In this document: positions 20,431 to 54,826 of the stretch, one piece after another
How the letters are laid out: every line of letters starts with the position of its first letter
Numbering within the stretch: position 1 is the first letter of the stretch
Source: an uncultured Endomicrobiia bacterium
Lineage (GTDB): Bacteria > Elusimicrobiota > Endomicrobiia > DTEH01
Assembly: GCA_937936785.1 (NCBI GenBank)
Contig: CALDDQ010000002.1
Span: 61,192 to 125,191 of the forward strand
Reading direction: 5' to 3'
Length of the DNA: 64,000 nt
Program-made: the position numbers and the translations under genes
The notes under the pieces: model-generated
What the model was told of the DNA's origin: nothing
The model's input: only the letters and a program-made list of their open reading frames with translations
Database searches by the model: none

Positions 20431-21849
20431 ATGGTAAAAGATATTTATAATCTATTAAAAAATAAATATTTTAGAAATTTTTTTTTATCATTTACATTTT
20501 TTTTATTTAATTATATTTTTGCAGATCAGATAAATGTGTATTTTACAGATCCTACCAACAGTAATCCTGCTGTGAGTCAAATTTCATCTAACCAAAAACC
20601 GATAGATTTTGCGTTACGCGATTTTGTTTTATCGGCTAACAGTGGAACTACAATGTATGTTTGTATTTATGAAGTCAATAACACAACAATCACTACTGCA
20701 ATAGATGAAGTTGTTAACAGAGGGGTGAAAGTTTATTCCATATTTAATGTTGCTGTTAATACATCTGTTTTTAAGACAAACTTTTATTACAAACAATACG
20801 GTTCTTCTGGTTCTCAATATATGCACAACAAATTTGTAGTAATAAAAAGTTCCAAAGTGTGGACGGGGTCATACAACTTTACAGTTTCTGCAACAAAAGA
20901 ACAAGACAACTTTGCTTTAGAAATATTTTCAAAAGATTTGGCTGACATTTATGAGCAAGCTTTTAATTATATATGGGCCTATGGTAGTACAACAATTTCT
21001 ACGGAAGTTGCAAAATTTAATGGAAAAGAAATATTTGTAGATGGAATTTCTATAAAAACATACTTTAATCCATATTCACAAAATCCAGAACTTGCTTCAG
21101 TATTAGTGCAAAATTGGTATGATTCTTCAAACGAAATCTCAAAAGTGAGTAGTTTATACTTTTCTGTTGCATGGTTTACAGAAAGCAGTATTGTAAACAC
21201 AATTAAAACTTTAAAATCAAAAGGCGTATTGGTAAAAGGTATAATTGATGATGATAGTAAAAACTTTGATACTTACTATTCTTTATGGAATTCTTCTGTT
21301 CCAATATATTTTGATGCTAGAAGAACATCTTTTGGAAGTGGTCTTATGCATCACAAGTTTTGTGTTTCTGACCCATACAAAGTTTCAGGCAAAGTTATTG
21401 CCGGTTCTGCTAACTGGTCCGATAGTGCATTAAGAAGCGGTAGAGACAAAAATTACGAAAATATTTTAGTGATACAATCACAAAGTGTAGCAGAAAAATT
21501 TTATTTAGAATATTTAAGATTATATGAAAAAATTAGCGATATGTCATATAATAGTTTATCACAAGAGATAATATCAAAAATTAAATTATATCCTAATCCA
21601 GTAAAAACAAGTTTTAAAATAAGTTTTATTCCATCAATTGCTATAAAAAAAATTGATTTTTATATATACTCTATTTATGGTAGAAAAATTTTTGAACAAA
21701 AGAATGTAAGTTTTTATCCTGAAATTGAAAATATTGTTTTGATACAATTACCCTTGGATATAAACGATGGTATATATTATTTTGTTATAGAAGCAAGTGT
21801 ATTCCAAGATAGAAAAAAATATTATCAAAAATTTGTTGTAGAAAAATGA
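20431..21849 (+). CDS. Secreted phospholipase D (HKD)-superfamily protein with T9SS type-A C-terminal sorting domain
   Basis: Signal peptide. Two HKD-like motifs: 'MHNKFVVIKSS...GSYNFT' (degenerate) and 'MHHKFCVSD...IAGSANWS'. C-terminal 'LYPNPVKTSF...IYSIYGRKI...GIYYFVIEA...KFVVEK' matches a T9SS C-terminal domain. Confidence 0.65.
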   Translation: MVKDIYNLLKNKYFRNFFLSFTFFLFNYIFADQINVYFTDPTNSNPAVSQISSNQKPIDFALRDFVLSANSGTTMYVCIYEVNNTTITTAIDEVVNRGVKVYSIFNVAVNTSVFKTNFYYKQYGSSGSQYMHNKFVVIKSSKVWTGSYNFTVSATKEQDNFALEIFSKDLADIYEQAFNYIWAYGSTTISTEVAKFNGKEIFVDGISIKTYFNPYSQNPELASVLVQNWYDSSNEISKVSSLYFSVAWFTESSIVNTIKTLKSKGVLVKGIIDDDSKNFDTYYSLWNSSVPIYFDARRTSFGSGLMHHKFCVSDPYKVSGKVIAGSANWSDSALRSGRDKNYENILVIQSQSVAEKFYLEYLRLYEKISDMSYNSLSQEIISKIKLYPNPVKTSFKISFIPSIAIKKIDFYIYSIYGRKIFEQKNVSFYPEIENIVLIQLPLDINDGIYYFVIEASVFQDRKKYYQKFVVEK

Positions 21850-22742
21850 AAAAAAAAATAACACACAAAATATTTTTTTTATTTATGGTAAACACTTTTT
21901 TTTGGTTAAACTTGAACGCAGATATTAACGAAATATTTTTATTGCCAAGTTCTATTGAAGAAAGTGGTTTAATGACATCATTATATTCTATAAGTCAAGA
22001 TATTAATTCTATTTTTTACAATCCAGCAGGGATTGCTATTAATAACATAAAACGTTTTGGGTTAAATTATTCAATTTTATTTGACAATATAAAATCTGGT
22101 AGTGTTATTTTAAACTTTCCAACAAAAAAAAATAATTATTCTTTTGGTATTAAATATAATGATTTAGGAGATATAACTTTTTATAATGATTATGGAGAAA
22201 AACTTGGTGTTAAAAATTTATATGCATACAGAATAAATATTGGTTTTGGTAATGAACTGTTTATTTCAGGGTTATATTTAGGAATAAGTTTAGGCGTACA
22301 AAATATAGTTTTAAACAAAGAATATTTTCTTACCACATTAAATATTGGCGGAATATATATAATTCCAATACAAGAAACAGAGGTGCATATCGGTAGTAAT
22401 ATTGGTTCACAATACAATTTTGTTGAAAAAAAAGTTATATTAACACCATCTTTAGGGATGAAATATTTTTTACCGGAATACAAAAGTTTTGTTTCTTTAG
22501 CATATAAAATTATAGATAGGACAGATTTTTATAGTTTTGGTTTAGAATTAAGTTTTATTAAAAATATAAATTTGATTTTAGGTTATGAAATATCTACTCA
22601 AATAAAAGATTGGAATAATAATTTTGGAATAGCAACTAAAATAAATTTAACTAAAAGGCAAGATTTTAGTATTGGGTTTGGATATAGAACGTTAAACAAT
22701 TTGGGAAATATTTTATCAACAAGTATAGAATTTAGATTATGA
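21846..22742 (+). CDS. Outer-membrane beta-barrel protein, PorP/SprF/PorQ-like (putative T9SS-associated)
   Basis: Signal peptide; 'IFYNPAGIAIN' matches the SprF/PorP NPAG motif; C-terminal '...SIEFRL'. Overlaps its neighbours by 4 nt on each side (operon). Confidence 0.45.
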   Translation: MKKKITHKIFFLFMVNTFFWLNLNADINEIFLLPSSIEESGLMTSLYSISQDINSIFYNPAGIAINNIKRFGLNYSILFDNIKSGSVILNFPTKKNNYSFGIKYNDLGDITFYNDYGEKLGVKNLYAYRINIGFGNELFISGLYLGISLGVQNIVLNKEYFLTTLNIGGIYIIPIQETEVHIGSNIGSQYNFVEKKVILTPSLGMKYFLPEYKSFVSLAYKIIDRTDFYSFGLELSFIKNINLILGYEISTQIKDWNNNFGIATKINLTKRQDFSIGFGYRTLNNLGNILSTSIEFRL

Positions 22743-24114: not shown

Positions 24115-24200
24115 ATGATATATTTACAAGATAAAACGGTTTAAATTAAACAAAATATTTTTATTATAATTAGTGTTAACATTTATTGGAGGTAAGAGAT

Positions 24201-24509
24201 ATGCTTTTTGCACGGGTAATTGGCAATGTTGTTTGTACAAGAAAAGATGATAAATTGAAAGGTTCAAAATTGTTATTGGTCCAACCTGTAGATTTAGAAA
24301 ATAATCCTAAAGGGAATCCTATTGTGGCAGTTGACGCAGTTGGTGCAGGAGAAGGTGAGATGGTTTTGATAGTACAAGGTTCTTCTGCTCGTCAGACAAA
24401 GTATACTGAAGGTACACCTGTAGATTGTACAATTTTTGCAATTGTAGATTCAGCAGAACGTGATGGAAAAAAAGTTTTTAACAAAACACAGGATTATGAT
24501 AAAAGATAA
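24201..24509 (+). CDS. BMC vertex protein (BMC-P; EutN/PduN/CcmL family)
   Basis: 'MLFARVIGNVVCTRK...LLLVQPVD...AVDAVGAGEGEMVLIVQGSSAR'. GGAGG RBS 8 nt upstream of ATG 24201 (the ORF-track start 24186 lies further upstream). Confidence 0.85.
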   Translation: MLFARVIGNVVCTRKDDKLKGSKLLLVQPVDLENNPKGNPIVAVDAVGAGEGEMVLIVQGSSARQTKYTEGTPVDCTIFAIVDSAERDGKKVFNKTQDYDKR

Positions 24510-24552
24510 GGTTTAGTCGTTAACTAAAATTCTATGAAAATTAAACAGGAGA

Positions 24553-26010
24553 ATGTTTATGGTACAAATTACCGAATCTGAACTAAAAAATTTAGTAGAA
24601 CTTGTTTTACAGAGATTAGAACAAAGAAATATAAATTTTGATAATAGTCATACAATTGAGACAGGTATAAATTATTCTAAGTATCATTTATGTTTAACTG
24701 TAGAAGAAGCAGTTACAAGAGCAAAATACGCACAAAAAATATTTCAAAGTTTAGGTCTTGAGAAAAGAAAAGAAATTATAGATAACATCAGAAGAAAAAG
24801 TTTAGAAAATGCACAATATTTAGCACAAATTACTGAAGAAGAAACCAAAATGGGCCGTTGGGAAAATAAGGTAAAAAAAAATGTTTTAGCAGCAATAAAA
24901 ACGCCCGGTGTGGAAGATATTCAGCCTGTAACAGCATACACAGGAGATCATGGTTTGACTTTGGTTGAATATGCACCTTATGGAGTAATTGCTGCTGTTA
25001 CACCATCAACAAATCCAACTTCGACAATAATTAACAATTCAATTTCAATTTTATCAGCAGGAAATTCTGTAATTTTTGCTCCACACCCATCAGCAAAAAA
25101 ATGTTCTCAAGAAACTATAAGAATAATTTATGATGCAATAGTAGAATGTTCTGGTCCGAAAGATTTGATATTAACTATAGATCCGCCTTCTGTAGAAGCA
25201 ACGCAGTCATTATTAAAACATCCTGATATAAAATTGGTAGTTGTTACTGGAGGTCCAGCGATAGTGAAAGTAGCGATGCAGAGTGGTAAAAAAACGATAG
25301 CTGCGGGACCTGGAAATCCGCCTGTAGTAGTAGATGAAACAGCTGTGTTTCCAAAATGTGTAAATGACATAATAGATGGTTCGAGTTTTGATAACGGGAT
25401 TTTGTGTACTGCAGAAAAAGAAGTTATTTTAGTTGAAAGCGTAAAAGAAAAGTTTATATCATACATGCGCAGGGAGACTCGTGCTTACGAACTAACAAAA
25501 GAACAGATGGACCATTTAGCAAAACTTGCAATAAAAGAACCTGCAGGACCACACTGTAAAGAAGGTGTTATAAATCGTGATTTTGTAGGTAAAGATGCAA
25601 ATGTTATTGCTAAAAGTATTGGTTTAAATTTATCTGAAGATATAGTTTTATTATGGGGAGTTGTGCCTAATGATCATCCATATATATGGACAGAACAACT
25701 TATGCCAGTTTTACCCGTTACGGTAGTAAAAGACATTGATGAAGCAATAGATCTTGCAGTTAAGGTTGAAGGAGACAATCATCATACTTTTATAATACAT
25801 TCGTTAAATGTTGACACATTGACAAAAATGGCAAAAGCATGTCAAGGATCAATTTTGGTAAAAAACGGTCCTTCATTTATGGGGTTAGGTTTTGGTGAAG
25901 GATATGCTACCTTAACAATAGCGACACCTACAGGCGATGGTCTTACAAAAGCAAAAAATTTTACAAGACCATTAAGATGTGTTTTGGTAGATTATTTAAG
26001 GATAGTATAA
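24553..26010 (+). CDS. CoA-acylating aldehyde dehydrogenase (PduP/EutE-like), BMC-encapsulated type
   Basis: 485 aa ALDH fold; 'GILCTAEKE' catalytic-Cys region. N-terminal amphipathic 'SELKNLVELVLQRLEQ' resembles an encapsulation peptide. Confidence 0.85.
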   Translation: MFMVQITESELKNLVELVLQRLEQRNINFDNSHTIETGINYSKYHLCLTVEEAVTRAKYAQKIFQSLGLEKRKEIIDNIRRKSLENAQYLAQITEEETKMGRWENKVKKNVLAAIKTPGVEDIQPVTAYTGDHGLTLVEYAPYGVIAAVTPSTNPTSTIINNSISILSAGNSVIFAPHPSAKKCSQETIRIIYDAIVECSGPKDLILTIDPPSVEATQSLLKHPDIKLVVVTGGPAIVKVAMQSGKKTIAAGPGNPPVVVDETAVFPKCVNDIIDGSSFDNGILCTAEKEVILVESVKEKFISYMRRETRAYELTKEQMDHLAKLAIKEPAGPHCKEGVINRDFVGKDANVIAKSIGLNLSEDIVLLWGVVPNDHPYIWTEQLMPVLPVTVVKDIDEAIDLAVKVEGDNHHTFIIHSLNVDTLTKMAKACQGSILVKNGPSFMGLGFGEGYATLTIATPTGDGLTKAKNFTRPLRCVLVDYLRIV

Positions 26011-26032
26011 TTTATTTAATAAAAAAAAGTTT

Positions 26033-27358
26033 ATGGATGAGATAATTTATAGAATAAAAAGTGCTGGTATAGTAGGTGCAGGTGGTGCTGGGTTTCCAAC
26101 ATATTTTAAGTTAGAATCTGCAAAAGGTAAAGTTGATACTTATATAATCAATGCAGCCGAGTGTGAACCGTTATTAAAAGTTGACCAACAAATTTTAAAA
26201 GTTTATACAGAAGAAATTTTATCTGCAGCAAAGAAAGTTGGTGATTATCTCGGAGTGAAGAAGATTGTTATAGGAATAAAAGAAAAGTACAAAGATGCTA
26301 TAGAAGTTTTAGAAAAAAGTATCAAACAATATAATAATATAGAACTATATTTGTTAGAAAATTTTTATCCTGCAGGGGATGAGTTTACCTTAATAAACGA
26401 AGTTACAGGCAGGATTATTCCGGAGGGCGGGTTACCAGTAAATGTTGGTTGTGTGGTAAATAATGTTGTTACATTACTAAACATTTATAACGCAATTGAA
26501 AAAAATATTTCTGTTATTACGAGACCTGTGAGTATTGTAGGTGAAGTAAAAGATCCAAAAACTTTAATAGTTCCGGTTGGGACAATTATTAAGGATTTAA
26601 TAAAATTATGCGGTGGGACAACAGTGGAACATTTTGCGATTATTGATGGTGGTCCGATGATGGGAAAAGTTGTCTGTGAAGATGATGTTGTTACAAAACG
26701 TACTTCAGGTATACTTGTGTTACCTTTAGAACATCCTGTTGTTATTATGAAAACAGTATCTGAACATCAGTATTTGTATCAGATAAAATCTGCTTGTGAA
26801 CAATGCCAGGATTGTACCGAAATTTGTCCGAGGTATTTGTTGGGTCATGAATTTGAATGTCACAAGATTCAAAGATCTGTGTCATATCAAATAGACGAAT
26901 TTTTAACACAAGCGTTTTTATGTTGTGAATGTGGACTTTGTGATTGGGTTTGTCCTATGTATCTATTACCAAGAAAAACAAACCAGTTAGTGAAACAAAT
27001 TTTAATAAAAAAAGGAATAAAAAATTCGCATAACAAAAAACCTGATAATGTTCGTGCAACAAAAGAATATAGAAAAGTGCCTGTAGAACGTTTAATTTCA
27101 AGATTTAATTTAACAGAATATTTATCAAAAGAAGCACCTTTAGAATTAGATGTTAAAGAATTTTCTGTTGTTAAAATACCTTTGGTACAACACATTGGCG
27201 CAAAACCTGTTTCTGTGGTAAAAGTTGGAGATGAAGTAAAAAAGAATGATTTGATATCTGTCATAGATGATTACAAATTAGGGACAAATCATCATGCATC
27301 AATAGATGGTAAAATAATTTTAGTTAATGACGAACATATTGTAATAAGCAAAAATTAG
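26033..27358 (+). CDS. pduS: PduS-like / RnfC-like Fe-S flavoprotein (BMC-associated)
   Basis: 'SAGIVGAGGAGFPTYFKL...INAAECEPLL' RnfC/PduS N-terminal motif. Two 4Fe-4S motifs: 'CEQCQDCTEICP' and 'CCECGLCDWVCP'. Confidence 0.8.
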   Translation: MDEIIYRIKSAGIVGAGGAGFPTYFKLESAKGKVDTYIINAAECEPLLKVDQQILKVYTEEILSAAKKVGDYLGVKKIVIGIKEKYKDAIEVLEKSIKQYNNIELYLLENFYPAGDEFTLINEVTGRIIPEGGLPVNVGCVVNNVVTLLNIYNAIEKNISVITRPVSIVGEVKDPKTLIVPVGTIIKDLIKLCGGTTVEHFAIIDGGPMMGKVVCEDDVVTKRTSGILVLPLEHPVVIMKTVSEHQYLYQIKSACEQCQDCTEICPRYLLGHEFECHKIQRSVSYQIDEFLTQAFLCCECGLCDWVCPMYLLPRKTNQLVKQILIKKGIKNSHNKKPDNVRATKEYRKVPVERLISRFNLTEYLSKEAPLELDVKEFSVVKIPLVQHIGAKPVSVVKVGDEVKKNDLISVIDDYKLGTNHHASIDGKIILVNDEHIVISKN

Positions 27359-27372
27359 TGGAGGCATAATTT

Positions 27373-27927
27373 ATGCAATCATCATTAGTATTATTAGAAT
27401 TAAATTCAATTGCTCGTGGGCTAGAAACTGCAGATGCAATGTGCAAAGTTGCCACAGTAAATTTGATTGATGCATATGCAATTTGTCCTGGGAAATATAT
27501 CATAATAATAAACGGTTTATTAGCAGATGTGCAGTCATCTTTAAACAAAGGTATAGAAGTTGCGCAGCAACATTTAATTGATAAGTTGTTAATACCTAAC
27601 ATTAGTCCAAAAATTATTCCTGCAATATTAGGAACGTCAAAGATAAGACAAAATATAATTTCGTTAGGTTCTATAGAAACATTTTCAGCAGCAAGTTGTA
27701 TTGTTGCATCAGATTTAGCATCGAAAAAAGCAGATGTTGATTTGATAGAAATACGATTAGCAAAAGGTTTAGGTGGAAAATCGTATGTAACATTATGTTC
27801 TGATGATGTAGGTGCAGTAAAAAGTGCAATTAACGAAGCTGTAATTTATACCAAAAAAAATGGTTCACTGGTACAAAAAACAGTTATTCCACAGATACAT
27901 CCTGATATGTTAAAAACAATTTTATAG
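27373..27927 (+). CDS. pduT: Tandem-BMC-domain shell protein (BMC-T), PduT-like with Fe-S-ligand cysteine
   Basis: 184 aa, the same length as PduT. Two BMC domains ('LVLLELNSIARGLETADAMCKVATV' and 'SLGSIETFSAASCIVASDLASKKADV'). 'AICPGK' corresponds to the PduT [4Fe-4S]-ligating Cys. Confidence 0.8.
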   Translation: MQSSLVLLELNSIARGLETADAMCKVATVNLIDAYAICPGKYIIIINGLLADVQSSLNKGIEVAQQHLIDKLLIPNISPKIIPAILGTSKIRQNIISLGSIETFSAASCIVASDLASKKADVDLIEIRLAKGLGGKSYVTLCSDDVGAVKSAINEAVIYTKKNGSLVQKTVIPQIHPDMLKTIL

Positions 27928-27948
27928 GGATTATGATGTGAGGGAAGT

Positions 27949-28401
27949 ATGAATATAGTAATAGGTTCAGACCATGGAGGGTTTAAATTAAAAGAAATAT
28001 TAAAAAAGTTTTTGCAATTACAAAATCATACTGTGGCAGATTTTGGTTGTTATTCGGAGGAACCTGTTGATTGGACAGACATTGCATTATTAGTAGCAGA
28101 ATCGGTAAAGGACAGATATTATGATTTTGGTATTTTGATTGACGGGTTTGGTGGAGCTGTATGTCTTGCAGCAAACAAGGTTAAAGGAGTTCGTGCAGTT
28201 TGTGCATATAACGAATTTTCAGCTAGATTAGCAAAAGAACATGACGATGCAAACATACTATGTCTTGGTGGCAAGACAGTTGGTGATTTGGAAAATATTG
28301 AAATCGTGAAATCCTTTTTGTCAGCACTGCCTGCGAAAGATGAAAAATATTTACGTAGGTTAAAAAAGTTGGATGATATTGAAAAAAAATATTTTAAATA
28401 A
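27949..28401 (+). CDS. Ribose-5-phosphate isomerase B / LacAB-family sugar-phosphate isomerase, paralogue 1 (divergent)
   Basis: 'IVIGSDHGGFKLK'; 'GILIDGFGGAVCLAANKVKGVRAV' (Asp where RpiB normally has the catalytic Cys). Confidence 0.75.
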   Translation: MNIVIGSDHGGFKLKEILKKFLQLQNHTVADFGCYSEEPVDWTDIALLVAESVKDRYYDFGILIDGFGGAVCLAANKVKGVRAVCAYNEFSARLAKEHDDANILCLGGKTVGDLENIEIVKSFLSALPAKDEKYLRRLKKLDDIEKKYFK

Positions 28402-28407
28402 AAAATT

Positions 28408-28875
28408 ATGAACTTAGCAATAGCTTCAGATCATACAGGGTTTGAGATAAAAAAAAATCTTGTTAAAAAACTTAATAATGAAGGGTATAATGTAATAGAT
28501 TTTGGTTGTTATAGTGATGAAAGTTGTGATTATCCTGATTATGCAATAAAAGTATCAAAAGCTGTTCAAAGAAAAGATGCAAAATTTGGGATATTAATTT
28601 GTGGTAGTGGTATAGGGATGAGCATTGTTGCAAACAAATTTAAAGGTATTCGTGCAGGATTGTGTTTTTCGGAAGAAACAGCCAAACTTATTGCAGAACA
28701 CAATTTCGCAAACATAATATGTTTACCTGCAAGAATAAAAGTTTGTGGTGAGAATATATCCGAGGATAAACTTTATTTATGGATAAAGATCTGGTTAACA
28801 ACTTCAAATTCAACTGAAGATAGGCATATTAACAGAATAAAAAAAATTGAGTTGTTAGAGAAAGAGATTTTGTAA
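28408..28875 (+). CDS. rpiB: Ribose-5-phosphate isomerase B (RpiB/LacAB family), paralogue 2 (canonical)
   Basis: 'LAIASDHTGFEIK'; 'GILICGSGIGMSIVANKFKGIRA' with the conserved Cys. Confidence 0.8.
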   Translation: MNLAIASDHTGFEIKKNLVKKLNNEGYNVIDFGCYSDESCDYPDYAIKVSKAVQRKDAKFGILICGSGIGMSIVANKFKGIRAGLCFSEETAKLIAEHNFANIICLPARIKVCGENISEDKLYLWIKIWLTTSNSTEDRHINRIKKIELLEKEIL

Positions 28876-28900
28876 AAAGTTTTTTAAAGAGGCTAATGTT

Positions 28901-29299
28901 ATGATAAAAAAAATGTATTTATTAACAATGATACTTTTTCAAACAATTGTCTATGGACAAGAAAATTTAGATGATATTATAAAATTGTTAAACTCAGGAC
29001 AAAATGACAATGCAATAAACATGTTAAAATCTTTGGGTTCTGATAATGAAATATTGTTTGCGATAGCATATCTTGAGAAAAAAGATTTTTCTAATGCTAA
29101 AAGTTATGCTTTAAAAAGTTTTTCAAAAAATTCTAGTATTGTGGTTGCAAGTTATATTTTAGCACAGATATATGAAGAGCAGAAAGATTATTTAACTGCA
29201 ATAAAATATTGGGACAACGTATATCGTAATGCAAAAGATAAGACAGTGAAAATGTTAGCAAAAAAACAGTGTGAAGTTTTAAAAGTTTTAACAAAATGA
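28901..29299 (+). CDS. Small exported TPR-like protein
   Basis: Signal peptide 'MIKKMYLLTMILFQTIVYGQ'; helical repeat-like composition. No family recognised. Confidence 0.35.
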   Translation: MIKKMYLLTMILFQTIVYGQENLDDIIKLLNSGQNDNAINMLKSLGSDNEILFAIAYLEKKDFSNAKSYALKSFSKNSSIVVASYILAQIYEEQKDYLTAIKYWDNVYRNAKDKTVKMLAKKQCEVLKVLTK

Positions 29300-29877
29300 A
29301 AATAATATATAATACAACTGCCAAATTTTTAATTTTATTAACCATGTTGTTTTATGTTGGTTGTACGCTAACGCCAAGAGGTGTGTTTTATAAAGATTTT
29401 GACCCGAGAAGAATTTCAGTTATTTCAGTAGGACAATTTACAACTTCAAGTGGTAATGCTATTAGTGACTATGTGAAAAATTTAATGATACAAAATTTGT
29501 TAGCAAGAAACTTTACTGTAAAAGAAGTTAACTCGGAAGATGTAGATTATGTATTATTAGGGAGTGTAACAAAATTTTTGCCAGAGAAAAAATTTTTAGT
29601 ATACACAGGGACAAACAAACAACAAGTAATGTTAGGTGGTCCTTTGACAGAAATTAGTGGTAGTAATGTGTACAACATTGGCACTGCATTTGGTGTTTCG
29701 GATGGAGAAATAGTTGTTACTAACGCTACAGTAGGAGTTAGTGCGAGGTTAGTAGAAAAAAGAACAGGTAATGTTGTCTGGAGCAGTTCATTTTCGTACG
29801 AAGCGCTAACTGCAGATACTGCAGCAGAAATTGTTGCAAATTATTTGATTACTTCATTGACAGGGTTAAGAAGATAG
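29296..29877 (+). CDS. Putative lipoprotein
   Basis: Signal peptide with lipobox-like 'LFYVGC' followed by a Ser/Thr/Gly-rich beta-type domain. No family recognised. Confidence 0.4.
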   Translation: MKIIYNTTAKFLILLTMLFYVGCTLTPRGVFYKDFDPRRISVISVGQFTTSSGNAISDYVKNLMIQNLLARNFTVKEVNSEDVDYVLLGSVTKFLPEKKFLVYTGTNKQQVMLGGPLTEISGSNVYNIGTAFGVSDGEIVVTNATVGVSARLVEKRTGNVVWSSSFSYEALTADTAAEIVANYLITSLTGLRR

Positions 29878-29902
29878 CTCTAAACAAGGAGAATAAAAAA
29901 TT

Positions 29903-30193
29903 ATGCAAGCAGGGATAGTAGTAGGCCGTGTTTGGGCAACACAAGAATATGAAAGTTTGAAAGGAAAAAAATTGTTGTTAGTATTACCAACAACATGGGA
30001 TAAAAAAATTAAATCTAATGATCCGATTGTTATGGTAGATACAGTAGGTGCGGGTGCAGGTGAGTTTATTTTTTATGTTTCATCTAGAGAAGCAGCAGTA
30101 GCTTGTGGTGGCAACAGTTTAAAAGATACACCTCCGGTAGATGCAGCTATTGTTGGAATAATTGATGGAATAAATTTAACAGAGGAATTATAA
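29903..30193 (+). CDS. BMC vertex protein (BMC-P; EutN/CcmL family), paralogue 2
   Basis: 'MQAGIVVGRVWATQEYESLKGKKLLLV...MVDTVGAGAGEF'. Confidence 0.85.
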   Translation: MQAGIVVGRVWATQEYESLKGKKLLLVLPTTWDKKIKSNDPIVMVDTVGAGAGEFIFYVSSREAAVACGGNSLKDTPPVDAAIVGIIDGINLTEEL

Positions 30194-30492
30194 TGTTTAT
30201 AGCAAAAGTTGTAGGAAATCTTTGGGCTACAAGAAAACATAAAAGTTTAGAAGGTGGAAAACTTTTATTAGTAAAAAAGTGTGATGGTTTAACAGGCAAG
30301 TTTTACAATGAAGAACCATCTTTAGCAATTGACATAAATATTGGAGCAGGTATTGGCGATATTGTTTTAGTTATGGATGAAGGCAGTTCTGCTAGACAAA
30401 TTCTAAACAACAAAATTGCTCCTGTTAGAACAATAGTATGTGGAATTATTGATTTGGTAAATTCTGGCAAACAAACAAAAAAATGGCATTAA
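30193..30492 (+). CDS. BMC vertex protein (BMC-P; EutN/CcmL family), paralogue 3
   Basis: 'MFIAKVVGNLWATRKHKSLEGGKLLLV...AIDINIGAGIGDIVLV'. Start overlaps the upstream stop by 1 nt. Confidence 0.8.
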   Translation: MFIAKVVGNLWATRKHKSLEGGKLLLVKKCDGLTGKFYNEEPSLAIDINIGAGIGDIVLVMDEGSSARQILNNKIAPVRTIVCGIIDLVNSGKQTKKWH

Positions 30493-30530
30493 ATGTTAAG
30501 ACAAAAAAAAATTAAGGAGTTAAATAGATT

Positions 30531-32027
30531 ATGAAAAACTTGTTATGTATTTTAATGGGTGGAGACAGAAATTTGCAAACAGCGTTTAATGCAGTGAAAG
30601 AGTTTACAAAAATTTTTATAGTAAAAATTTTTGTAAGCAAATCAGCAACACAAATTATTGGCACAGAAAAGATAAAGTCAGAATTAAGAGGTTGTGAAAT
30701 TATTATACCAAACGGAGAATATCTTGACCCACATAAATTATCTAATTGGGCAGATGTTTTAGTTATTCCGATTTTAACTTTGAACGGTTTGGCAAAAATT
30801 GTAAATCTTATGCCAGATAGTCAACAGATTAATATTACGATTGGTTGTCTGGAAAAAGGTATTCCAGTGATTGTATCAAAGGATAGTGTATTTTGTTCTT
30901 GTTATCCAGACCCTTCTGTGAACAGTCCATTATATAGAAAAGTAGAACAAAATTTGTCAGAGTTAAAATCATTAGGGATAACAGTTTCTACAGGTGAAAA
31001 TTTAGTTAACAATGTTTTAATACAATGTGGTATGGTAGAAAGTGTGATAAAACCATCTTCAGGTGGGAAAATTTTTTCTAACAACAAAATAATTAATGTA
31101 ACTTCAACTACACTTGGAAAAAATTTTGTTTCTGATAATGTAAATGTTACGATAGGTTCAGCAGGAAAAATATTTTCTAAGCCTCTAACAAAAAGTGGTA
31201 ATATTATTGATGATATTTGTGTCGCATTTAAGTTGAGTGACACATCACAAAATTTAGAATGTTTAAGTTGTGGAAAATGCGTAGAACGAAAAAAAAGATC
31301 CGTAGCACAAGTAATAAATGCTGGTGCAGATAGAATTGCTGCATATGATGTAAAAGATGTTGGGAAAGAAATTGCTCCATTAATAGATCACACCTTACTT
31401 AAAGCAAATGCAACTCAAGAAGAGATTGTAAAATTGTGTGAAGAAGCGAAGAAATATAAGTTTGCTTCTGTATGTGTCAATCCCGCATATGTAAATTTGT
31501 GTAAGCAACTATTAGGATCAAGTTCAGTAAAGGTATGCACAGTGATAGGGTTTCCGTTGGGAGCAACAACTTCGACTGTCAAAGCAATAGAAACAAAAGA
31601 AGCAATTGCAAACGGTGCAGATGAAGTTGATATGGTAATAAATATAGGTGCACTAAAATCAGGAAATTATCAATTGGTTTTTGATGACATTAAATCTGTT
31701 AGGGAAGCCTCTAGAGGAAAAATTTTAAAGGTAATAATTGAAACTGCATATTTAACTAAAGAAGAAAAAATTAAAGCATGTGAATTGTCCAAAGAAGCAG
31801 GTGCAGATTTTGTAAAAACATCAACAGGATTTGGACCTTCAGGTGCAACAGCAGAAGATATTGCATTAATGAAATTTGTTGTTGGACCTAAAATTGGTGT
31901 TAAAGCTTCTGGTGGAATACGTTCATTAGATGATGCAGTAAAAATGGTGAAAGCAGGAGCGACACGAGTAGGAGCTTCTGCTTCAGTAGCAATTGTAAGA
32001 GGTGAAGTTGGTAAAAGTAAATATTAA
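30531..32027 (+). CDS. deoC: Fusion protein: N-terminal degenerate flavoprotein (HFCD/CoaC)-fold domain plus Cys-rich linker plus C-terminal class I deoxyribose-phosphate aldolase (DeoC)
   Basis: C-terminal about 230 aa are near-canonical DeoC ('[11 protein letters not shown]', '[11 protein letters not shown]', Schiff-base Lys in '[10 protein letters not shown]', '[10 protein letters not shown]'). N-terminal 'CILMGG...[18 protein letters not shown]...LKSLGITV' resembles the flavoprotein fold but lacks the FMN-binding signatures. Linker carries 'ECLSCGKC'. Confidence 0.8.
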
Positions 32028-32107
32028 AAAAACAGTTAACTAAAAAATGACAGTAAATAAAATTTTATAAAAAACCCGTGGAAAAATTTTTTATACAGGA
32101 GGAATTT

Positions 32108-32404
32108 ATGGAAGAGAAAGATGCAGTAGGAATGATAGAAACGCGCGGAATGGTTGGTATGGTAGAAGCCACAGATGCAATGGTAAAAGCGGCAAAGGTT
32201 AGACATATTGGGTATGAAAAGGTTGGGACAGGTTTAGTAACAACTTTTGTAAGAGGAGAAGTTGGAGCAGTGAGAGCTGCAGTTGAATCTGGTGCTGCCG
32301 CAGCACAGAAAGTTGGTGAGTTAGTTTCTGTCCATGTAATTCCGCGTCCACATGAGTATTTGGAAAAATTGTTGTCTAAAATAGAAAAAGATTTTGAAAA
32401 ATAA
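32108..32404 (+). CDS. BMC hexamer shell protein (BMC-H; PduA/EutM-like)
   Basis: 'AVGMIETRGMVGMVEATDAMVKAAKV...GEVGAVRAAVESG'. Start taken at ATG 32108, which follows a GGAGG RBS; the ORF-track start 32078 is a GTG. Confidence 0.85.
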   Translation: MEEKDAVGMIETRGMVGMVEATDAMVKAAKVRHIGYEKVGTGLVTTFVRGEVGAVRAAVESGAAAAQKVGELVSVHVIPRPHEYLEKLLSKIEKDFEK

Positions 32405-32455
32405 AAACTTTTTATTCCAAATTTTAATGATTTTAATTTTTTGATAAATTTTTAA

Positions 32456-32770
32456 ATGAATAAAGAAGTTATTGTTGAGATTATTATTGAAGAACTTAAG
32501 AAACTTGGTTATTATGTTAATACAGAATCTCAATCAACAAATTTGGCTAAAAATTATAAATCAGGTTTTTTTACCAAAGAAAAATATATAAAAAGTGTAA
32601 CATCATTACCACCGGGTAAAAAATTAATTACAGAATATGATGTTAGACAGTATATTAAACTAAAAAATAACACAAAAGAATTTATAGTTCCAGAAAATGT
32701 TATTATAGGTCCTTTAGCAGAAGATTTAATAAATAGTTTAGAACTAAAGATTGTAAAGAAAAAAGGTTAA
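32456..32770 (+). CDS. Hypothetical protein (104 aa) immediately downstream of BMC-H
   Basis: ORF only; no recognisable motifs. Confidence 0.3.
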   Translation: MNKEVIVEIIIEELKKLGYYVNTESQSTNLAKNYKSGFFTKEKYIKSVTSLPPGKKLITEYDVRQYIKLKNNTKEFIVPENVIIGPLAEDLINSLELKIVKKKG

Positions 32771-32849: not shown

Positions 32850-33929
32850 TTGATGAACATAGACCAACTGTTGCAGGTTATGATAAAAACAGGGATTTCG
32901 GATATACATTTTAAATCAAACTCTGCCCCGTTAATAAGAATGAATGGGAAACTTATACCAACACAATATGAAAAGTTTACAAATGAATCAATACAAAAAA
33001 TGGCATATAGTTTAATGAACGATGTTCAAAAAAAAATTTTTGAGCAAGAAAACGAATTAGATTTTGCATATTCAATTTCTGGCTATGCAAGATTTAGAGT
33101 TAATATTTATAAACAAAAAAATTCTGTAGCTTTAACATTAAGAGTAATACCATTAGATTTAAAAACATTTCAAGATTTACATTTACCAAACGATGTTTTG
33201 ACAAAATTATGTAATGAATCACGGGGGTTAGTTTTAATAACAGGAGTGACAGGTTCAGGTAAAACAACGACATTAAATGCGATGTTGAATTTTATAAACG
33301 AAAAGTATCAATATAATATAATTACTGTAGAAGATCCAATTGAATATTATCATATTGACAAAAAATCTTCAATTTCTCAACGGGAAATAGGTAGTGATAC
33401 AAAATCGTTCAAGAATGCTTTAAGATACGTTTTAAGACAAGATCCAGATGTTGTAGTAATAGGAGAAATGCGCGATTTTGAAGCAATTTCTGCCGGGATA
33501 ACAGCAGCAGAAACAGGGCACTTAGTATTATCAACTATACATACTATAGATGCAGTACAAACAATTGATAGAATAATTGATACATATCCGCCACATCAAC
33601 AAAAACAAGCAAGGATTCAGTTATCTAATGTTTTAAAAGGTATTATTGGTCAAAGACTATGTTTATTAAATTCAGGCGAAGGAAGAATTCCTGCAACAGA
33701 AGTGTTAATAGCAACATCATTAGTTAGAAAATTAATTTTAGAAGATAAACCTCAAGAACTTTATAAAGCCATGGAAAATGGTGCATATTATTTAATGCAT
33801 ACATTTGACCAGGCATTATTAAAATTACATATTGATGGTGTAATTTCTTTTGAAGAAGCGATGGACAAAGCTACTAATCCAGAAGATTTACAATTAAAAC
33901 TTCGTGGAATTTCACAATCAAAAAGTTAA
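32850..33929 (+). CDS. pilT: Type IV pilus retraction ATPase PilT
   Basis: 'ISDIHF', Walker A 'GVTGSGKTTTL', Asp box 'NIITVEDPIEY', His box 'GHLVLSTIHT'; 359 aa. Confidence 0.85.
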   Translation: MMNIDQLLQVMIKTGISDIHFKSNSAPLIRMNGKLIPTQYEKFTNESIQKMAYSLMNDVQKKIFEQENELDFAYSISGYARFRVNIYKQKNSVALTLRVIPLDLKTFQDLHLPNDVLTKLCNESRGLVLITGVTGSGKTTTLNAMLNFINEKYQYNIITVEDPIEYYHIDKKSSISQREIGSDTKSFKNALRYVLRQDPDVVVIGEMRDFEAISAGITAAETGHLVLSTIHTIDAVQTIDRIIDTYPPHQQKQARIQLSNVLKGIIGQRLCLLNSGEGRIPATEVLIATSLVRKLILEDKPQELYKAMENGAYYLMHTFDQALLKLHIDGVISFEEAMDKATNPEDLQLKLRGISQSKS

Positions 33930-33947: not shown

Positions 33948-34778
33948 GTGAATGAATCAAGAAAGGATTTAAACGATATTTTATCAGAACTACATAAAGT
34001 ATTAGATGATTTATCTTTAGAAACAGGGGTGAAGGAAAAGTTAGAACCAGTAATTTCTAAAGAACCAAAATTAGATGAACTGGTTTCAGATAATAAGATT
34101 AAAAAAGAAGATATTGCTTTAGACACAGAACAAAATGTTAAGTTGAATACTTTGGTTAATGACAAAGAAAAAGAAATTTTCCAAGAATCAAAGGAATTTT
34201 ATGTGGAAGATAAAAAAGAACCATTGGTTGACAAACAAACGGTTGCTTTTGAACAAAATCATGCTGAACAACAACAAGATTTGCATGGACATCTGGTTAA
34301 TAACAATAACACAGAAAAAGTTTTAGAAGAAAAGTTACCACAAGAAACTAAAATAAAAGAATCTCAATCACAAGAATCTATTGTAATAAAACAAGAAGAT
34401 ATAAATCAAACTATAATAAATACAATCATTATATATCCTAAAAGTATTCCGGATGCTAAACAAACTTTTTATGATCAAGTCAACACAACATTAAAACGAG
34501 TAAGTAAAAAACCAGTAAGGATGATTTCTGTTTGGGAATTGCAGTATGAAAATTCAGAACAAGATTTGATAAAAAATTATAATTGGCTATTGTCACAGAT
34601 AAAAACAAATGATGTAAAAGGTCTTTTTTTTATAACGAATGAAGCAGTAATTTTAGATGATTTCATAAAAAAGGTTGCAATGGAAGTTTTTATGATAAAA
34701 TCTATAAAATATTCAGAACTTAAATCAAAATCTATATATTTGGATATAGCAATTGACATACTACTTACTGTAAAATAA
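33948..34778 (+). CDS. Acidic hypothetical protein whose C-terminal about 140 aa domain is shared with the downstream DnaA-like protein
   Basis: The Glu/Lys/Gln-rich N-terminal half is low complexity. C-terminal 'IIIYPKS...NYNWLLSQIKTNDVKGLFFIT...SIYLDIAIDILL' aligns by eye with the C-terminus of the 34790..36694 product. Confidence 0.4.
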   Translation: MNESRKDLNDILSELHKVLDDLSLETGVKEKLEPVISKEPKLDELVSDNKIKKEDIALDTEQNVKLNTLVNDKEKEIFQESKEFYVEDKKEPLVDKQTVAFEQNHAEQQQDLHGHLVNNNNTEKVLEEKLPQETKIKESQSQESIVIKQEDINQTIINTIIIYPKSIPDAKQTFYDQVNTTLKRVSKKPVRMISVWELQYENSEQDLIKNYNWLLSQIKTNDVKGLFFITNEAVILDDFIKKVAMEVFMIKSIKYSELKSKSIYLDIAIDILLTVK

Positions 34779-34789
34779 AATAATAAAAA

Positions 34790-36694
34790 ATGATAACTTC
34801 TTGGGAGTTAAAATTTTCTCCTGTTGAAAAATATTCCAACAGGTATAGATTAAAGGTAAATTGTTCTAATGAAGATGTTGAAGAAATTAGTAGTTTTTTA
34901 AAAGACGAGTTAAAACTTGATATATCACCTGCGTTTCAATCTTTAAGTGGCGAATATAACTGGGGAATTTATATTTATGATTTGAAGAATGATGAAAAAC
35001 AAAAACTCGTAGAAAAAATGTTTTTTGTATGTAAAAATGGTTTTGTAGAGGATAAAGAAAAAATGCAACCAAATGTAGAAAAAACAAATGTTGCAGATGT
35101 TTCACCCGAGCTAGGAAATATTTTATCAGATTTAGTAAAAAATATGACAGAAAAAGCTGTTGCTACAAATTCAGAAAAAGAAACTTTTGTAAATGTAAAA
35201 ACTATTGAAGAAGAATATCAAGGGTTACCTTTAGTTCCAAGATATACATTTGAAAATTTTGTAGTAGGTCCAAATAATAGGTTTACTCACGCAGCAGCAT
35301 TGGCTGTTGCAGAAAATCCTGGCAAAACTTATAATCCATTATTTATTTATGGTGGAGTAGGTCTTGGTAAAACACATTTAATGCAAGCTGTAGGGCATTT
35401 TTTAAAAACAAAAAAACCTCTAAGTAAAATCATGTATATAACTTCAGAAAAATTTGTAAGTCAAGTTATAGAAGCTATAAGAAAAGGTGGAATTCGTAAT
35501 TTACGCGATTCGTATCGTGATATAGATTTACTTTTGATTGATGATATACAATTTATGGCAGATTCAGAATCTACTCAAGAAGAATTTTTCCATATATTTA
35601 ACACATTACACCAATATGGCCGGCAGATAGTAATGACTAGTGATAGACCACCAAAATTACTTACAACTTTAGAGGATAGATTAAGGTCAAGGTTTGAGTG
35701 GGGCTTAATTGCAGATATAAAATCTCCTTCATTAGAGACACGTGTCGCAATTTTAAAACGCAAAGGTGAAGAAGAAAATGTTAATTTAGATGATAATATT
35801 TTGTTATACATAGCATCAAAACTTAAGTCCAACATTCGTGAATTAGAAGGTTTTTTAAAACGAATAAATGTGTATGCAAATTTGACGAATCAGCCAGTAG
35901 ATATTACTTTAGTTAAACAATTAATGAGCGAATTGTTACCAAAAGAAGAACTTACTGATGAAGAAAAAAGTATTTTAGAAAAAAGTAATGAAGAGACATC
36001 TTCTTCGACTAAGGATGTTGTATCTATTCCCAAACCGAAACCCAAGGTTCAAACATTTAAATCAGCAACACAAAATGACAGTCGTGATAATGTAAAAACT
36101 GTTGTTCAAAAAGTAAAACCAATTTCAATTGAGAACATATATAAATCATCTAAAGAAATTCCTAATACAGTATCAAAACCAGAATCAAAAAATATAGAAG
36201 AACAAAAATTTGTTGTAGAACAACAAAATAAGATTTCTCCACAACAGAATGAAGATAAACTAATAAAGATAGATGAAGAAAAATTTTATCAGGACTACGA
36301 ATCTGCAGTTAATGTAGTTGAAGTATCATTTTTTTATCCGGAGGGTAAGTTAGAAGAGTTGTATGTAGTAAAACAGAAGTTTGCTGAAATTATCAAAAAA
36401 CATAATTTAAGATACAAAATAGTTACAGCTTTTGATAGGCCATATGCATTAGAAAACATAAACTATAAAATGTTTTTAGAATTATGTAAAACTAATAAAA
36501 TTGATGTTTGTGTTTTAATCTCGCCACAACCCGGCGAGATAGTTTCTACGGAAGAATTTTATGAAAACATAGCTCCGTTAATGGAAGCAGGAGAGATTAT
36601 CTTTGAATTCATTCCTTGGCGTGATTTAACTAAAGAATATAGATATTTAAACCTAGCATTAGACATTGCATTGTCAAAATTTAAATTAGAATAA
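34790..36694 (+). CDS. DnaA-like AAA+ ATPase: canonical DnaA domain III, but no DnaA domain IV (DNA-binding HTH); instead a charged linker and an unrecognised C-terminal domain
   Basis: Domain III motifs: 'RYTFENFVVGPNNRFTHAAALAVAENPGKTYNPLFIYGGVGLGKTHL', 'IDLLLIDDIQF', 'QEEFFHIFNTLHQYGRQIVMTSDRPP', 'LEDRLRSRFEWGLIADI', 'SNIRELEGFLKRI'. No 'GGRDHTTV'-type signature anywhere C-terminal. Not followed by dnaN. Confidence 0.6.
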   Translation: MITSWELKFSPVEKYSNRYRLKVNCSNEDVEEISSFLKDELKLDISPAFQSLSGEYNWGIYIYDLKNDEKQKLVEKMFFVCKNGFVEDKEKMQPNVEKTNVADVSPELGNILSDLVKNMTEKAVATNSEKETFVNVKTIEEEYQGLPLVPRYTFENFVVGPNNRFTHAAALAVAENPGKTYNPLFIYGGVGLGKTHLMQAVGHFLKTKKPLSKIMYITSEKFVSQVIEAIRKGGIRNLRDSYRDIDLLLIDDIQFMADSESTQEEFFHIFNTLHQYGRQIVMTSDRPPKLLTTLEDRLRSRFEWGLIADIKSPSLETRVAILKRKGEEENVNLDDNILLYIASKLKSNIRELEGFLKRINVYANLTNQPVDITLVKQLMSELLPKEELTDEEKSILEKSNEETSSSTKDVVSIPKPKPKVQTFKSATQNDSRDNVKTVVQKVKPISIENIYKSSKEIPNTVSKPESKNIEEQKFVVEQQNKISPQQNEDKLIKIDEEKFYQDYESAVNVVEVSFFYPEGKLEELYVVKQKFAEIIKKHNLRYKIVTAFDRPYALENINYKMFLELCKTNKIDVCVLISPQPGEIVSTEEFYENIAPLMEAGEIIFEFIPWRDLTKEYRYLNLALDIALSKFKLE

Positions 36695-50266: not shown

Positions 50267-50911
50267 ATGGACAAAGACACTAATAAAAAAATCTTCATGA
50301 GGAAACAGTTAGAAAGTGTTTCCAAAATTCTTTTCAAAAACAATTTTGAAACTTATATTTTTGATGATACACAATCTGCAACTGATTATATTATATCCAC
50401 TGTGGGAAAAAATAAAAACATTGGTATAGGTGGTAGTGTAACTATTACAGAGATTGGTTTAGTGGCAAAGTTAGAAAAAAATGGAAACAAAATTTTTACC
50501 CATGTAAGGAATATGACAAACGAACAACGTCGCAAGGTTTGGTTAAAAGCCCAAAATTCAGATTATTATTTTGCTTCTCCTCAAGCAATAACAATTAAAG
50601 GTGAAATGATATTTTTAGATGCAAACGGTAACCGTGTTTCTTCAATAATTTATGGTCCTAAAAAAGTTGTTTTAGTTGCTGGATATAACAAAATTGTAAA
50701 AGATTATAATTTAGGTTTATGGAGAGCAAGAAATATTAGTGCGATAATAAACAATTTGAGGTTGAACCGTAAAAATCCTTGCATTGTTACAGGGAAATGT
50801 GAAGATTGTAATTCTAAAGAAAGAATTTGTAATATATTAACAGTATTATACAAAAAACCAAGTTATACGGACTACATAGTAATATTGATTAACGAGGAGT
50901 TAGGATATTGA
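50267..50911 (+). CDS. LUD-domain (LutC/DUF162-like) protein
   Basis: 'IGIGGSVTITEIGLV...ASPQAITIKGEMIFLDANGNRV' resembles the LUD domain. C-terminal Cys pair 'CIVTGKCEDCNSKERIC'. Confidence 0.4.
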   Translation: MDKDTNKKIFMRKQLESVSKILFKNNFETYIFDDTQSATDYIISTVGKNKNIGIGGSVTITEIGLVAKLEKNGNKIFTHVRNMTNEQRRKVWLKAQNSDYYFASPQAITIKGEMIFLDANGNRVSSIIYGPKKVVLVAGYNKIVKDYNLGLWRARNISAIINNLRLNRKNPCIVTGKCEDCNSKERICNILTVLYKKPSYTDYIVILINEELGY

Positions 50912-50952
50912 AACTAAAAATAATTGTTTTATTATAACAAAAAATTCGGCAT

Positions 50953-51486
50953 ATGAAAATAGTACTTAATGATGAAGAAATAAAAAATATAATAAAAACT
51001 CTTGCAGCAGAAATTGTTAAAAGGTACAAGGATTTATCACAGGTTGCATTGGTGGGTATACATACAAACGGTGTTTATATTGCAAAACGGTTAAACGAAG
51101 AAATTTTTATTCTAACAGGGAAAAAACTAAATTTGGGTGTAGTGGACATAACATTTTATCGTGATGATATTGGTTTAAGCGATATTATAAAATTAGCAAA
51201 GGATACTGAGATAAATTTTGACATAAATGGTAAAGAAATAATTTTAGTAGATGATGTAATTTATACTGGAAGAACAATTCGTGCTGCAATGGAACAAATA
51301 TTAGAGATAGGTAGAGCAAAAAGTATAACAATTTTAGCGTTAGTAGATCGCGGGTTGCGTGAATTGCCAATATATGCTGAGTTTGTAGGGAAAGTTATAA
51401 AAACTTTGCCTAACCAAAAGATTAAAGTTTTGTTAAAAGAAGATAATAAGTTAAAAAAAGATAAAATAGTTTTATATGATGAATAA
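50953..51486 (+). CDS. pyrR: PyrR bifunctional pyrimidine regulatory protein / uracil phosphoribosyltransferase
   Basis: PRPP-binding 'ILVDDVIYTGRTIRAAM'; 177 aa. Confidence 0.85.
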   Translation: MKIVLNDEEIKNIIKTLAAEIVKRYKDLSQVALVGIHTNGVYIAKRLNEEIFILTGKKLNLGVVDITFYRDDIGLSDIIKLAKDTEINFDINGKEIILVDDVIYTGRTIRAAMEQILEIGRAKSITILALVDRGLRELPIYAEFVGKVIKTLPNQKIKVLLKEDNKLKKDKIVLYDE

Positions 51487-51507
51487 GATTACATAAATTT
51501 TAAAAAT

Positions 51508-52452: not shown

Positions 52453-52481
52453 AAAGATAATATATTAAATTTTAAAAAATT

Positions 52482-53771: not shown

Positions 53772-53810
53772 AGTTTTTTTCAAGTGTTATTTTAGTGTCA
53801 CTATTGTGAA

Positions 53811-54731: not shown

Positions 54732-54826
54732 ATTTTATTTATAAAACCATTGTTGATTTTTATTTTTTTTGTTTATAAAATACTATATTATTGTACAAAA
54801 CTAAGTGTTAAAGGAGGAATATTTTT

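Follow-up and report, generated by a model that had tools for sequence, protein, structure and literature searches.

A DnaA-derived AAA+ protein with two additional end domains in Elusimicrobiota is probably a lineage-specific paralogue and not the chromosomal initiator

In the present study, we analyzed a 64,000-nucleotide (nt) stretch of DNA, hereafter the window, from an uncultured Endomicrobiia bacterium of the phylum Elusimicrobiota (assembly GCA_937936785.1, contig CALDDQ010000002.1, positions 61,192 to 125,191), and focused on a gene for a 634-amino-acid (aa) protein resembling the replication initiator DnaA and on the gene for its partner protein immediately upstream. Domains IV and I of DnaA are supplanted in this protein by two other globular domains carried on long flexible linkers. 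We conclude with considerable confidence that the DnaA-derived gene is a lineage-specific paralogue and not the chromosomal initiator, and we lean, on balance, towards the reading that it acts as a signaling switch in Elusimicrobiota and in at least one Caldisericota metagenome-assembled genome (MAG).

The center of the protein is a complete AAA+ domain III with the Walker A and B motifs, sensor I, the box VII arginine finger, and sensor II (box VIII), which supports the original prediction, made from the sequence without database searches, that the Walker and sensor II motifs marked a DnaA domain III. In a Pfam scan, Bac_DnaA corresponded to residues 150-308 of the 634-aa protein (E 2.5e-70), and in a search of PDB sequences, residues 142-386 were aligned without gaps to domain III of Bacillus subtilis DnaA (8btg; E 4.5e-90), with 133 of 245 residues (54%) being identical; Thermotoga maritima DnaA was also aligned. 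The NCBIfam model for the DnaA equivalog, TIGR00362, scored 365 bits against a cutoff of 343.9 and was covered at positions 33-366 of 437; the stop of this alignment at position 366 shows that the protein is missing domain IV. The ATP binding and hydrolysis elements, the arginine finger, sensor II, and the lid are all intact in the AAA+ core, which is slowly evolving.

Both ends of the protein depart from DnaA, as had been proposed from the letters alone. Neither Bac_DnaA_C, the helix-turn-helix of domain IV that binds DnaA boxes, nor DnaA_N, the KH-like domain I, was matched by Pfam in the 634-aa protein even at E<=1 to 10, and the C-terminal 164 aa and N-terminal 147 aa, when scanned separately, gave no relevant Pfam match at E<=10. 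A canonical DnaA with a diverged domain IV was ruled out by this lack of a hidden Markov model (HMM) signal and by a C-terminus that models as an α/β Rossmann-type fold, and an N-terminal domain I was ruled out because residues 1-84 model as a separate, confident domain of another fold. The B motif that follows Walker B also lacks the basic residue(s) of the canonical GKExTQ: it reads ADSESTQ in the window protein and xSESTQ or xAESTQ in nearly all members of the family, with Ser in place of the lysine, which is kept in the canonical DnaAs 8btg, 2z4r, and L003-L006. In Aquifex aeolicus and Escherichia coli DnaA, this lysine and the arginine two residues on are contacts to single-stranded DNA (ssDNA) in the open complex.

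Regarding the C-terminal domain (C-domain), the predicted model (mean predicted local distance difference test score, pLDDT, 90.7; predicted template-modeling score, pTM, 0.85; topology in Table 1) has the four-stranded parallel, Rossmann-like sheet of the MID fold found in Argonautes. The top TM-score in a Foldseek search belonged to the MID domain of MIWI (0.70/0.73), and the best E-values to type II lumazine synthase (2.7e-5), with the Argonaute matches ranging from 4e-4 to 1.5e-3. At the sequence level, the C-domain could be linked to none of the Pfam families or PDB chains; as for Argonautes in particular, there was no Pfam match at E<=10, and none was retrieved when PDB sequences were searched with a profile. 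Neither the DnaA-like protein nor its neighbors contained a PIWI or PAZ domain, and PADLOC returned no relevant match. We describe the modeled C-domain as Rossmann-type and MID-like, which is a likeness of fold alone and not a claim of homology; the domain had originally been called unrecognized, which stands with respect to Pfam families, whereas its modeled fold can now be described. By eye, the conserved residues bunch where the strands end on their C-terminal side (FFYPEG, GPPP, PW..K.YRYLN); the invariant residues of the C-domain are F13, P15, K35, H36, K113, Y115, Y117, N119, and D123. When the secondary-structure elements were matched by eye to human Ago2 (hAgo2) in a provisional mapping, the lysines that presumably hold the 5' phosphate seemed not to be kept, and an invariant Asp occupied one such position. 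The model of the N-terminal domain (N-domain) was similarly confident (pLDDT 96.2), no Pfam family was matched to it by sequence, and a large homology search with an N-domain alignment yielded no hits.

The gene immediately upstream encodes a protein that shares the C-domain. Both genes are on the forward strand with a gap of 11 nt, and the preceding PilT-like gene ends 18 nt before the partner. The resemblance between the two C-terminal regions, initially noticed by eye, was marginal in a direct BLASTP comparison (E 8e-4), extended over 120 columns end to end when the C-domain profile was compared by hhalign with a six-member partner family (E 9.7e-5, probability 58%), and strengthened in an iterative HMM search with Z fixed at one million, a conservative database size, in which the window partner was recruited in round 3 (E 7.7e-4) and reached 1e-15 by round 5. 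The same search also recruited unannotated open reading frames (ORFs) upstream of the DnaA-like gene in L001 and L007. Both end domains are encoded by the upstream gene in deeper lineages, as observed in L012 (8449-9891; N-domain E 6e-16, C-domain E 1.3e-5), L014 (8101-9969; E 4e-10 and 2e-11, respectively), and L016 (3059-3853; E 2e-15 and 6e-12); therefore, the partner is a paralogue of the DnaA-like gene without the AAA+ domain. Proteins of this AAA-less type comprise P0174, P0196, P0202, P0208, and the upstream genes of L012, L014, and L016. In the clade of the window, the partner has retained only the C-domain, and its N-domain has been swapped for a short, conserved amphipathic helix, DLNDILSELHKVLDDLS (residues 5-25; 33960-34022), followed by a long acidic linker. 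The helix resembles, by eye, an encapsulation peptide of bacterial microcompartments, and the partner gene lies shortly downstream of a microcompartment locus. In L001 (5681-7126, E 2.9e-10) and L007 (6566-8032, partial, E 5e-6), the N-domain also heads a GGDEF diguanylate cyclase, the gene for which lies a few genes further upstream in the cluster. A sigma-70-like promoter match of 11/12 positions (TTGACA, 17 nt, TAAAAT) lies at 34753-34781, in the end of the partner gene before the DnaA-like start; match counts in the promoter and terminator scan of the region were at the level of chance.

The architecture is not peculiar to the window. The family comprises more than 150 sequence clusters in Elusimicrobiota and one Caldisericota MAG, with a fixed order of an N-domain of approximately 80 aa, a linker, the DnaA AAA+ domain, a second linker, and a C-domain of approximately 130 aa; an assembly or frameshift artefact was ruled out by the presence of the same architecture in these clusters. 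Among the best 120 homologues drawn from a collection of 5.8 billion proteins, Bac_DnaA was present in all and PF08299 in none (0/120), and those with a named source came from Elusimicrobiota or Endomicrobiia and bore the product label "chromosomal replication initiator protein DnaA". The AAA+ motifs are retained in 105-126 of 129 long family members. Nearly every full-length member has the N-domain, which occupies the first 80 residues or so, and two have it in duplicate. The C-terminal motif (D/E)Y(R/K)YLNLALDI(T/A)L closes nearly all of the homologues, the mean column identity of the C-domain was 58% in an alignment of 34 diverse C-terminal domains, and a search with its profile against 1.84 billion representatives retrieved 92 proteins only, with the domain being C-terminal in every case.

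The Caldisericota MAG (GCA_003648235.1, L016 3134-5702) places the gene pair outside Elusimicrobiota. Its long protein has an additional CxxC...CxxC zinc-ribbon ahead of the C-domain, and proteins consisting of a zinc-ribbon and C-domain also stand alone (P0199, P0159). The AAA+ domain of L016 (3834-5699) scored 243 bits against that of the window (35225-35947), and in a separate PDB search, the window protein scored 306 bits against B. subtilis DnaA; the lower score of L016 may point to rates that were unequal or to an exchange with the resident dnaA that occurred repeatedly.

Table 1. Positions in the window of the gene pair, the domains of the DnaA-derived protein, and the conserved upstream neighbors
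Feature	Position	Strand	Description
SPU-type microcompartment locus	24186..32770	+	EutN x3, aldehyde dehydrogenase, RnfC/Nuo51-like flavoprotein, tandem-BMC and BMC-H shell proteins, RpiB x2, DeoC fusion, 104-aa ORF
PilT-like ATPase (T2SSE)	32850..33929	+	Conserved upstream neighbor of the pair in 6/10 contexts
Upstream partner, 276 aa, GTG start	33948..34778	+	Acidic disordered linker; divergent C-domain copy at ~34389-34775
DnaA-derived three-domain protein, 634 aa	34790..36694	+	N-domain, DnaA AAA+ domain III, and predicted MID-like C-domain; called "DnaA" by PGAP-type rules
N-domain, residues 1-84	34790..35041	+	Modeled topology β-β-α-β-β-α-β; SUI1/eIF1/YciH-like or ACT-like fold
Linker 1, low-complexity	35042..35224	+	Variable length in the family: median 66 aa, maximum ~390
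DnaA domain III (AAA+)	35225..35947	+	Walker A GGVGLGKTHL, Walker B LLLIDDIQF, sensor I, box VII RLRSRFEWGL, sensor II SNIRELEG
Linker 2, charged low-complexity	35948..36295	+	Family range 36-185 aa, median ~89; Q/P-rich in other lineages
C-domain, residues 503-634	36296..36691	+	Modeled as parallel α/β with four strands, β1-α1-β2-α2-β3-α3-β4-α4; motifs FFYPEG, IKKHxLK, CKTNK, KxYRYLNLALDI

The genomic setting of the pair was compared in ten contexts (the window, L001, L007, L009, L010/L017, L012, L013, L014, L015, the P0208 contig, and L016). The recurring order begins with TIM, PTAC, and RpiB, followed by SPU-type microcompartment genes and/or DeoC and sometimes by a gene for an N-domain GGDEF or a PilZ protein; the central part runs from the PilT-like ATPase through the partner and the DnaA-like gene to a GAF-HisKA kinase, and the downstream part from response regulators to transketolase, phosphopentomutase, and nucleoside phosphorylase, sometimes with RecJ. 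The kinase gene is directly 3' of the DnaA-like gene in L009, L012, L014, and L015, and in three of these (L009, L014, L015), its start overlaps the DnaA-like stop by 4 nt; the L014 cluster also contains a PilZ gene. In L010 and L017, which represent one lineage, the kinase gene is directly 3' of a gene for an AAA-less protein with the N-domain and C-domain, and the downstream genes are the same as in L014. SPU or DeoC/RpiB/TIM genes stand upstream of the gene family across the phylum, and SPU microcompartments have been proposed to break down the products of DNA degradation (PMC8217296).

In the window, the DnaA-like gene is followed by ctpA, tsaD, and the dcw cluster. The earlier observation that neither dnaN nor a DnaA-box cluster accompanies the gene held over a wider range: dnaN, recF, and gyrB were absent near the pair in the window and the ten contexts, and the 64-kb window contains 32 DnaA-box sites against 26.6 expected, showing no enrichment. 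Neither a second DnaA-like ORF nor a cluster of DnaA boxes was found in the window or the other loci. The GC skew was positive in every 2-kb bin without a switch (24-32% G+C), and the strand bias was extreme, with essentially all credible genes on the forward strand; because of this uniform skew and strand bias, the window lies well inside one replichore. A phage- or plasmid-like context, which was initially named as a reason to downgrade the finding, was not borne out, and a phage, plasmid, or defense setting was ruled out because the gene shares a stretch of chromosome with tsaD, the pyr genes, and the dcw cluster; viral contigs contained no relatives of the DnaA-like protein, and PADLOC gave generic P-loop matches only.

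Several other features of the surroundings were recorded. SPU loci similar to that of the window also precede the family in L010, L017, and L018. In the window, the DeoC aldolase (residues 284-482) of the ORF at 30531-32027 is fused to an N-terminal region of approximately 280 aa that matches Flavoprotein weakly (E 8.5e-4) and includes a linker with Cys; in other loci, DeoC is encoded on its own and measures 210-290 aa. A conserved ORF of approximately 103 aa without a Pfam match (window 32456-32770, L010 9268-9579, L017 9261-9572) always comes immediately after the final BMC-H gene in these three loci, with either the PilT gene or one for a response regulator next in order. The flanks of the window are unremarkable and contain a polysaccharide/glycosyltransferase cluster with an asparagine synthase and a PLD-like protein (157-23644) and genes for pyrimidine biosynthesis, namely, pyrB, dihydroorotase, and a PyrK-like gene (50267-55996); flanking ORFs without a Pfam match include 157-903, 942-2327, 13449-14897, and 21846-22742.

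The question of whether this gene encodes an initiator or a paralogue was posed at the outset as two readings, of which the present results agree with that of an AAA+ regulator derived from DnaA and provided with its own dedicated partner, whereas the only DnaA of the lineage does not sit well with the gene context, the B motif, the AAA-less protein in the same slot, or the data on Elusimicrobium minutum. As a genuine sole initiator, the protein would use its MID-like C-domain, alone or with the partner, in place of domain IV at the origin and its N-domain in place of domain I. The conservation of domain III equals that of real DnaAs, the TIGR00362 equivalog cutoff is passed, and the C-domain is extremely conserved, as expected of a module that binds a fixed target. 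A canonical DnaA from a carrier genome was not encountered among the sequences examined, to which a scan of genome contigs contributed two Elusimicrobia loci and no whole carrier genome, and a relative, "Candidatus Endomicrobium trichonymphae", has been reported to have a dnaA pseudogene only and an atypical GC skew. We nevertheless regard this account as very improbable: the gene is located mid-replichore with no dnaN, DnaA-box cluster, or GC-skew switch nearby, it holds a fixed place in a catabolic and signaling cluster in 10/10 contexts, the B-motif lysine for ssDNA contact is lost, an AAA-less protein occupies the same syntenic slot in one lineage, and the gene numbering of E. minutum implies that a dnaA-dnaN-recF-dciA-gyrB operon exists elsewhere. 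In that species, DciA is Emin_0004, and dciA of Elusimicrobia has been described inside the dnaA-dnaN-recF-gyrB operon (PMC5109545), a position from which a separate conventional dnaA at the start of the E. minutum genome is implied. An initiator role is thus unlikely because of the catabolic and signaling context, the loss of domains IV and I, the change in the B motif, the AAA-less variants, and these operon data.

If the paralogue is a signaling switch, as we favor, its AAA+ core would serve for ATP-dependent oligomerization. The near-canonical sequence of the core suggests that it may still form protomer contacts of the DnaA type, whether among its own copies or to the resident DnaA, the assembly of which could be modulated or capped in a manner akin to the action of Hda on DnaA. 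Without the B-motif lysine, the protein itself probably does not hold unwound origin DNA, and with neither this residue nor domain IV, it would modulate the initiation complex and not perform initiation. The N-domain and MID-like C-domain would be input or targeting modules, the binding target of which may be the paralogous partner or else a ligand with a phosphate, e.g., a nucleotide or the 5' end of a nucleic acid, and which would link the switch to the neighboring GAF histidine kinase, response regulators, N-domain GGDEF or PilZ protein, and PilT-like ATPase; this signaling set lies within a cluster for the catabolism of nucleosides, deoxyribose, and sugar phosphates. We infer that the core has not drifted in the way that Hda, DnaC, and IstB have because DnaA-type ATP-dependent contacts have been kept.

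Several points weigh against this account. The locus of the window itself has neither the GAF kinase nor a GGDEF gene, and co-assembly with DnaA is a guess from the conservation of the core. Foldseek places lumazine synthase above the MID domains for the C-domain. As for the AAA-less proteins in the syntenic slot, these may have survived as partners instead of arising by deletion. The presence of a canonical dnaA in the same cell as the paralogue is inferred from the literature on E. minutum, and the report of a dnaA pseudogene in "Ca. Endomicrobium trichonymphae" (PMC5174739) also has to be considered.

Signaling without any connection to replication, in which the protein is an ATP-gated scaffold that works with the GAF kinase, response regulators, and cyclic di-GMP (c-di-GMP) enzymes on the expression or assembly of the neighboring catabolic and microcompartment genes or on the pilus, accords with the 4-nt overlap of the kinase gene in three loci, the adjoining response regulators, the N-domain shared with a GGDEF cyclase, the PilZ gene in L014, and the partner helix, which is similar by eye to an encapsulation peptide. 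We consider it unlikely, since a paralogue free of DnaA contacts should drift like Hda, DnaC, and IstB, whereas this one is still 54% identical to a Firmicute DnaA, and since no output domain is evident. A distinctly unlikely role, in our view, is the handling of nucleic acids, whereby a PilT pilus would import DNA, the MID-like domain would grip a 5'-phosphate end or mononucleotide, and the AAA+ domain would coat or remodel ssDNA before the DNA is passed to nucleases and the deoxyribose-phosphate microcompartment. The upstream SPU, DeoC, RpiB, and TIM genes, the downstream transketolase, phosphopentomutase, nucleoside phosphorylase, and occasional RecJ genes, the function proposed for SPU compartments in using DNA-degradation products (PMC8217296), the PilT-like neighbor, and the modeled MID-like fold would all be consistent with this; however, the B motif no longer has its basic residues for contact with ssDNA, nucleases and helicases are neither fused to the protein nor constant neighbors of its gene, the provisional mapping by eye to hAgo2 suggests that the lysines for the 5' phosphate are not kept, and PilT is missing in 4/10 contexts. 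It is also conceivable, although quite improbable, that the MID-like C-domain has as its ligand either a nucleotide signal or a nucleic-acid end with a 5' phosphate and so directs or gates a DnaA-type AAA+ assembly. In one form of this proposal, the assembly may start or restart DNA synthesis independently of origin boxes and could be the working initiator where the canonical dnaA has decayed, e.g., in "Ca. Endomicrobium trichonymphae"; in the other, it may be a nucleotide-sensing brake or accelerator on DnaA that couples initiation to the scavenging of DNA and nucleosides.

DnaA-derived AAA+ paralogues are already known; what is new here is the presence of two undescribed domain families on such a paralogue, which is systematically mis-annotated. 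Full-text searches of the literature found no description of this architecture, a domain-IV-less DnaA, a combination of MID and DnaA, or a combination of a microcompartment and DnaA, nor did we find a published account of a domain III of DnaA that remained at canonical conservation once the functions of DNA binding and domain I were lost. The databases most likely label a lineage-specific regulator wrongly as "DnaA". The family passes the NCBI threshold for the DnaA equivalog and carries the DnaA name, and, therefore, origin prediction, the rotation of assemblies to dnaA, and single-copy-marker logic can be misled, a risk that applies to the MAGs of Elusimicrobiota and Caldisericota. If the protein acts on DnaA, it would represent a class of regulator apart from Hda, YabA, SirA, and DiaA, and initiation would be tied to two-component or c-di-GMP signaling and to a DNA-scavenging metabolism. 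If the C-domain is a true relative of MID, it would be a MID fold with a role outside Argonautes. Moreover, the two end domains that flank the AAA+ core also make up a separate paralogue without it, usually the product of the gene just upstream.

In comparisons with known systems, the protein is similar to canonical DnaA in its complete, near-canonical domain III, with 54% identity to that of B. subtilis and all ATPase motifs and the lid, and differs from it in the absence of domains IV and I, the replaced B-motif lysine, the foreign end domains, and the lack of an association with oriC, dnaN, or DnaA boxes. Argonaute and PIWI proteins have a MID pocket for the 5' phosphate of the guide, from which the C-domain differs in having no detectable sequence similarity and no accompanying PIWI or PAZ domain. 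The N-domain has no sequence match to the eIF1/SUI1/YciH or ACT-like domains, and this fold class is common, so no function was assigned. DnaC, DnaI, and IstB belong to the same initiator AAA+ clade, and a weak Pfam match to IstB_IS21 was obtained (E 7e-8); nevertheless, all NCBIfam models for loaders and IstB were far under their cutoffs, and the DnaA-like protein is without a helicase-binding N-domain. Elusimicrobia have been reported to possess DciA and not DnaC or DnaI (PMC5109545). Regarding Hda and HdaA, the score for TIGR03420 was 115.4 bits (cutoff, 194.8), those for the remaining Hda/HdaA models were 26-58 bits (cutoffs, 268-316), and a pattern search for the beta-clamp motif (QL[SD]LPL-like) found it absent ahead of Walker A in 130/130 members, with the sole matches being the Walker B strand; membership in Hda, DnaC, or IstB was ruled out by the model cutoffs and the missing clamp motif. 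Hda/HdaA and the present protein are alike in being DnaA-derived AAA+ proteins without domain IV, and an action on DnaA through AAA+ contacts is possible for the latter, which is much nearer to DnaA than Hda is and carries additional N- and C-domains.

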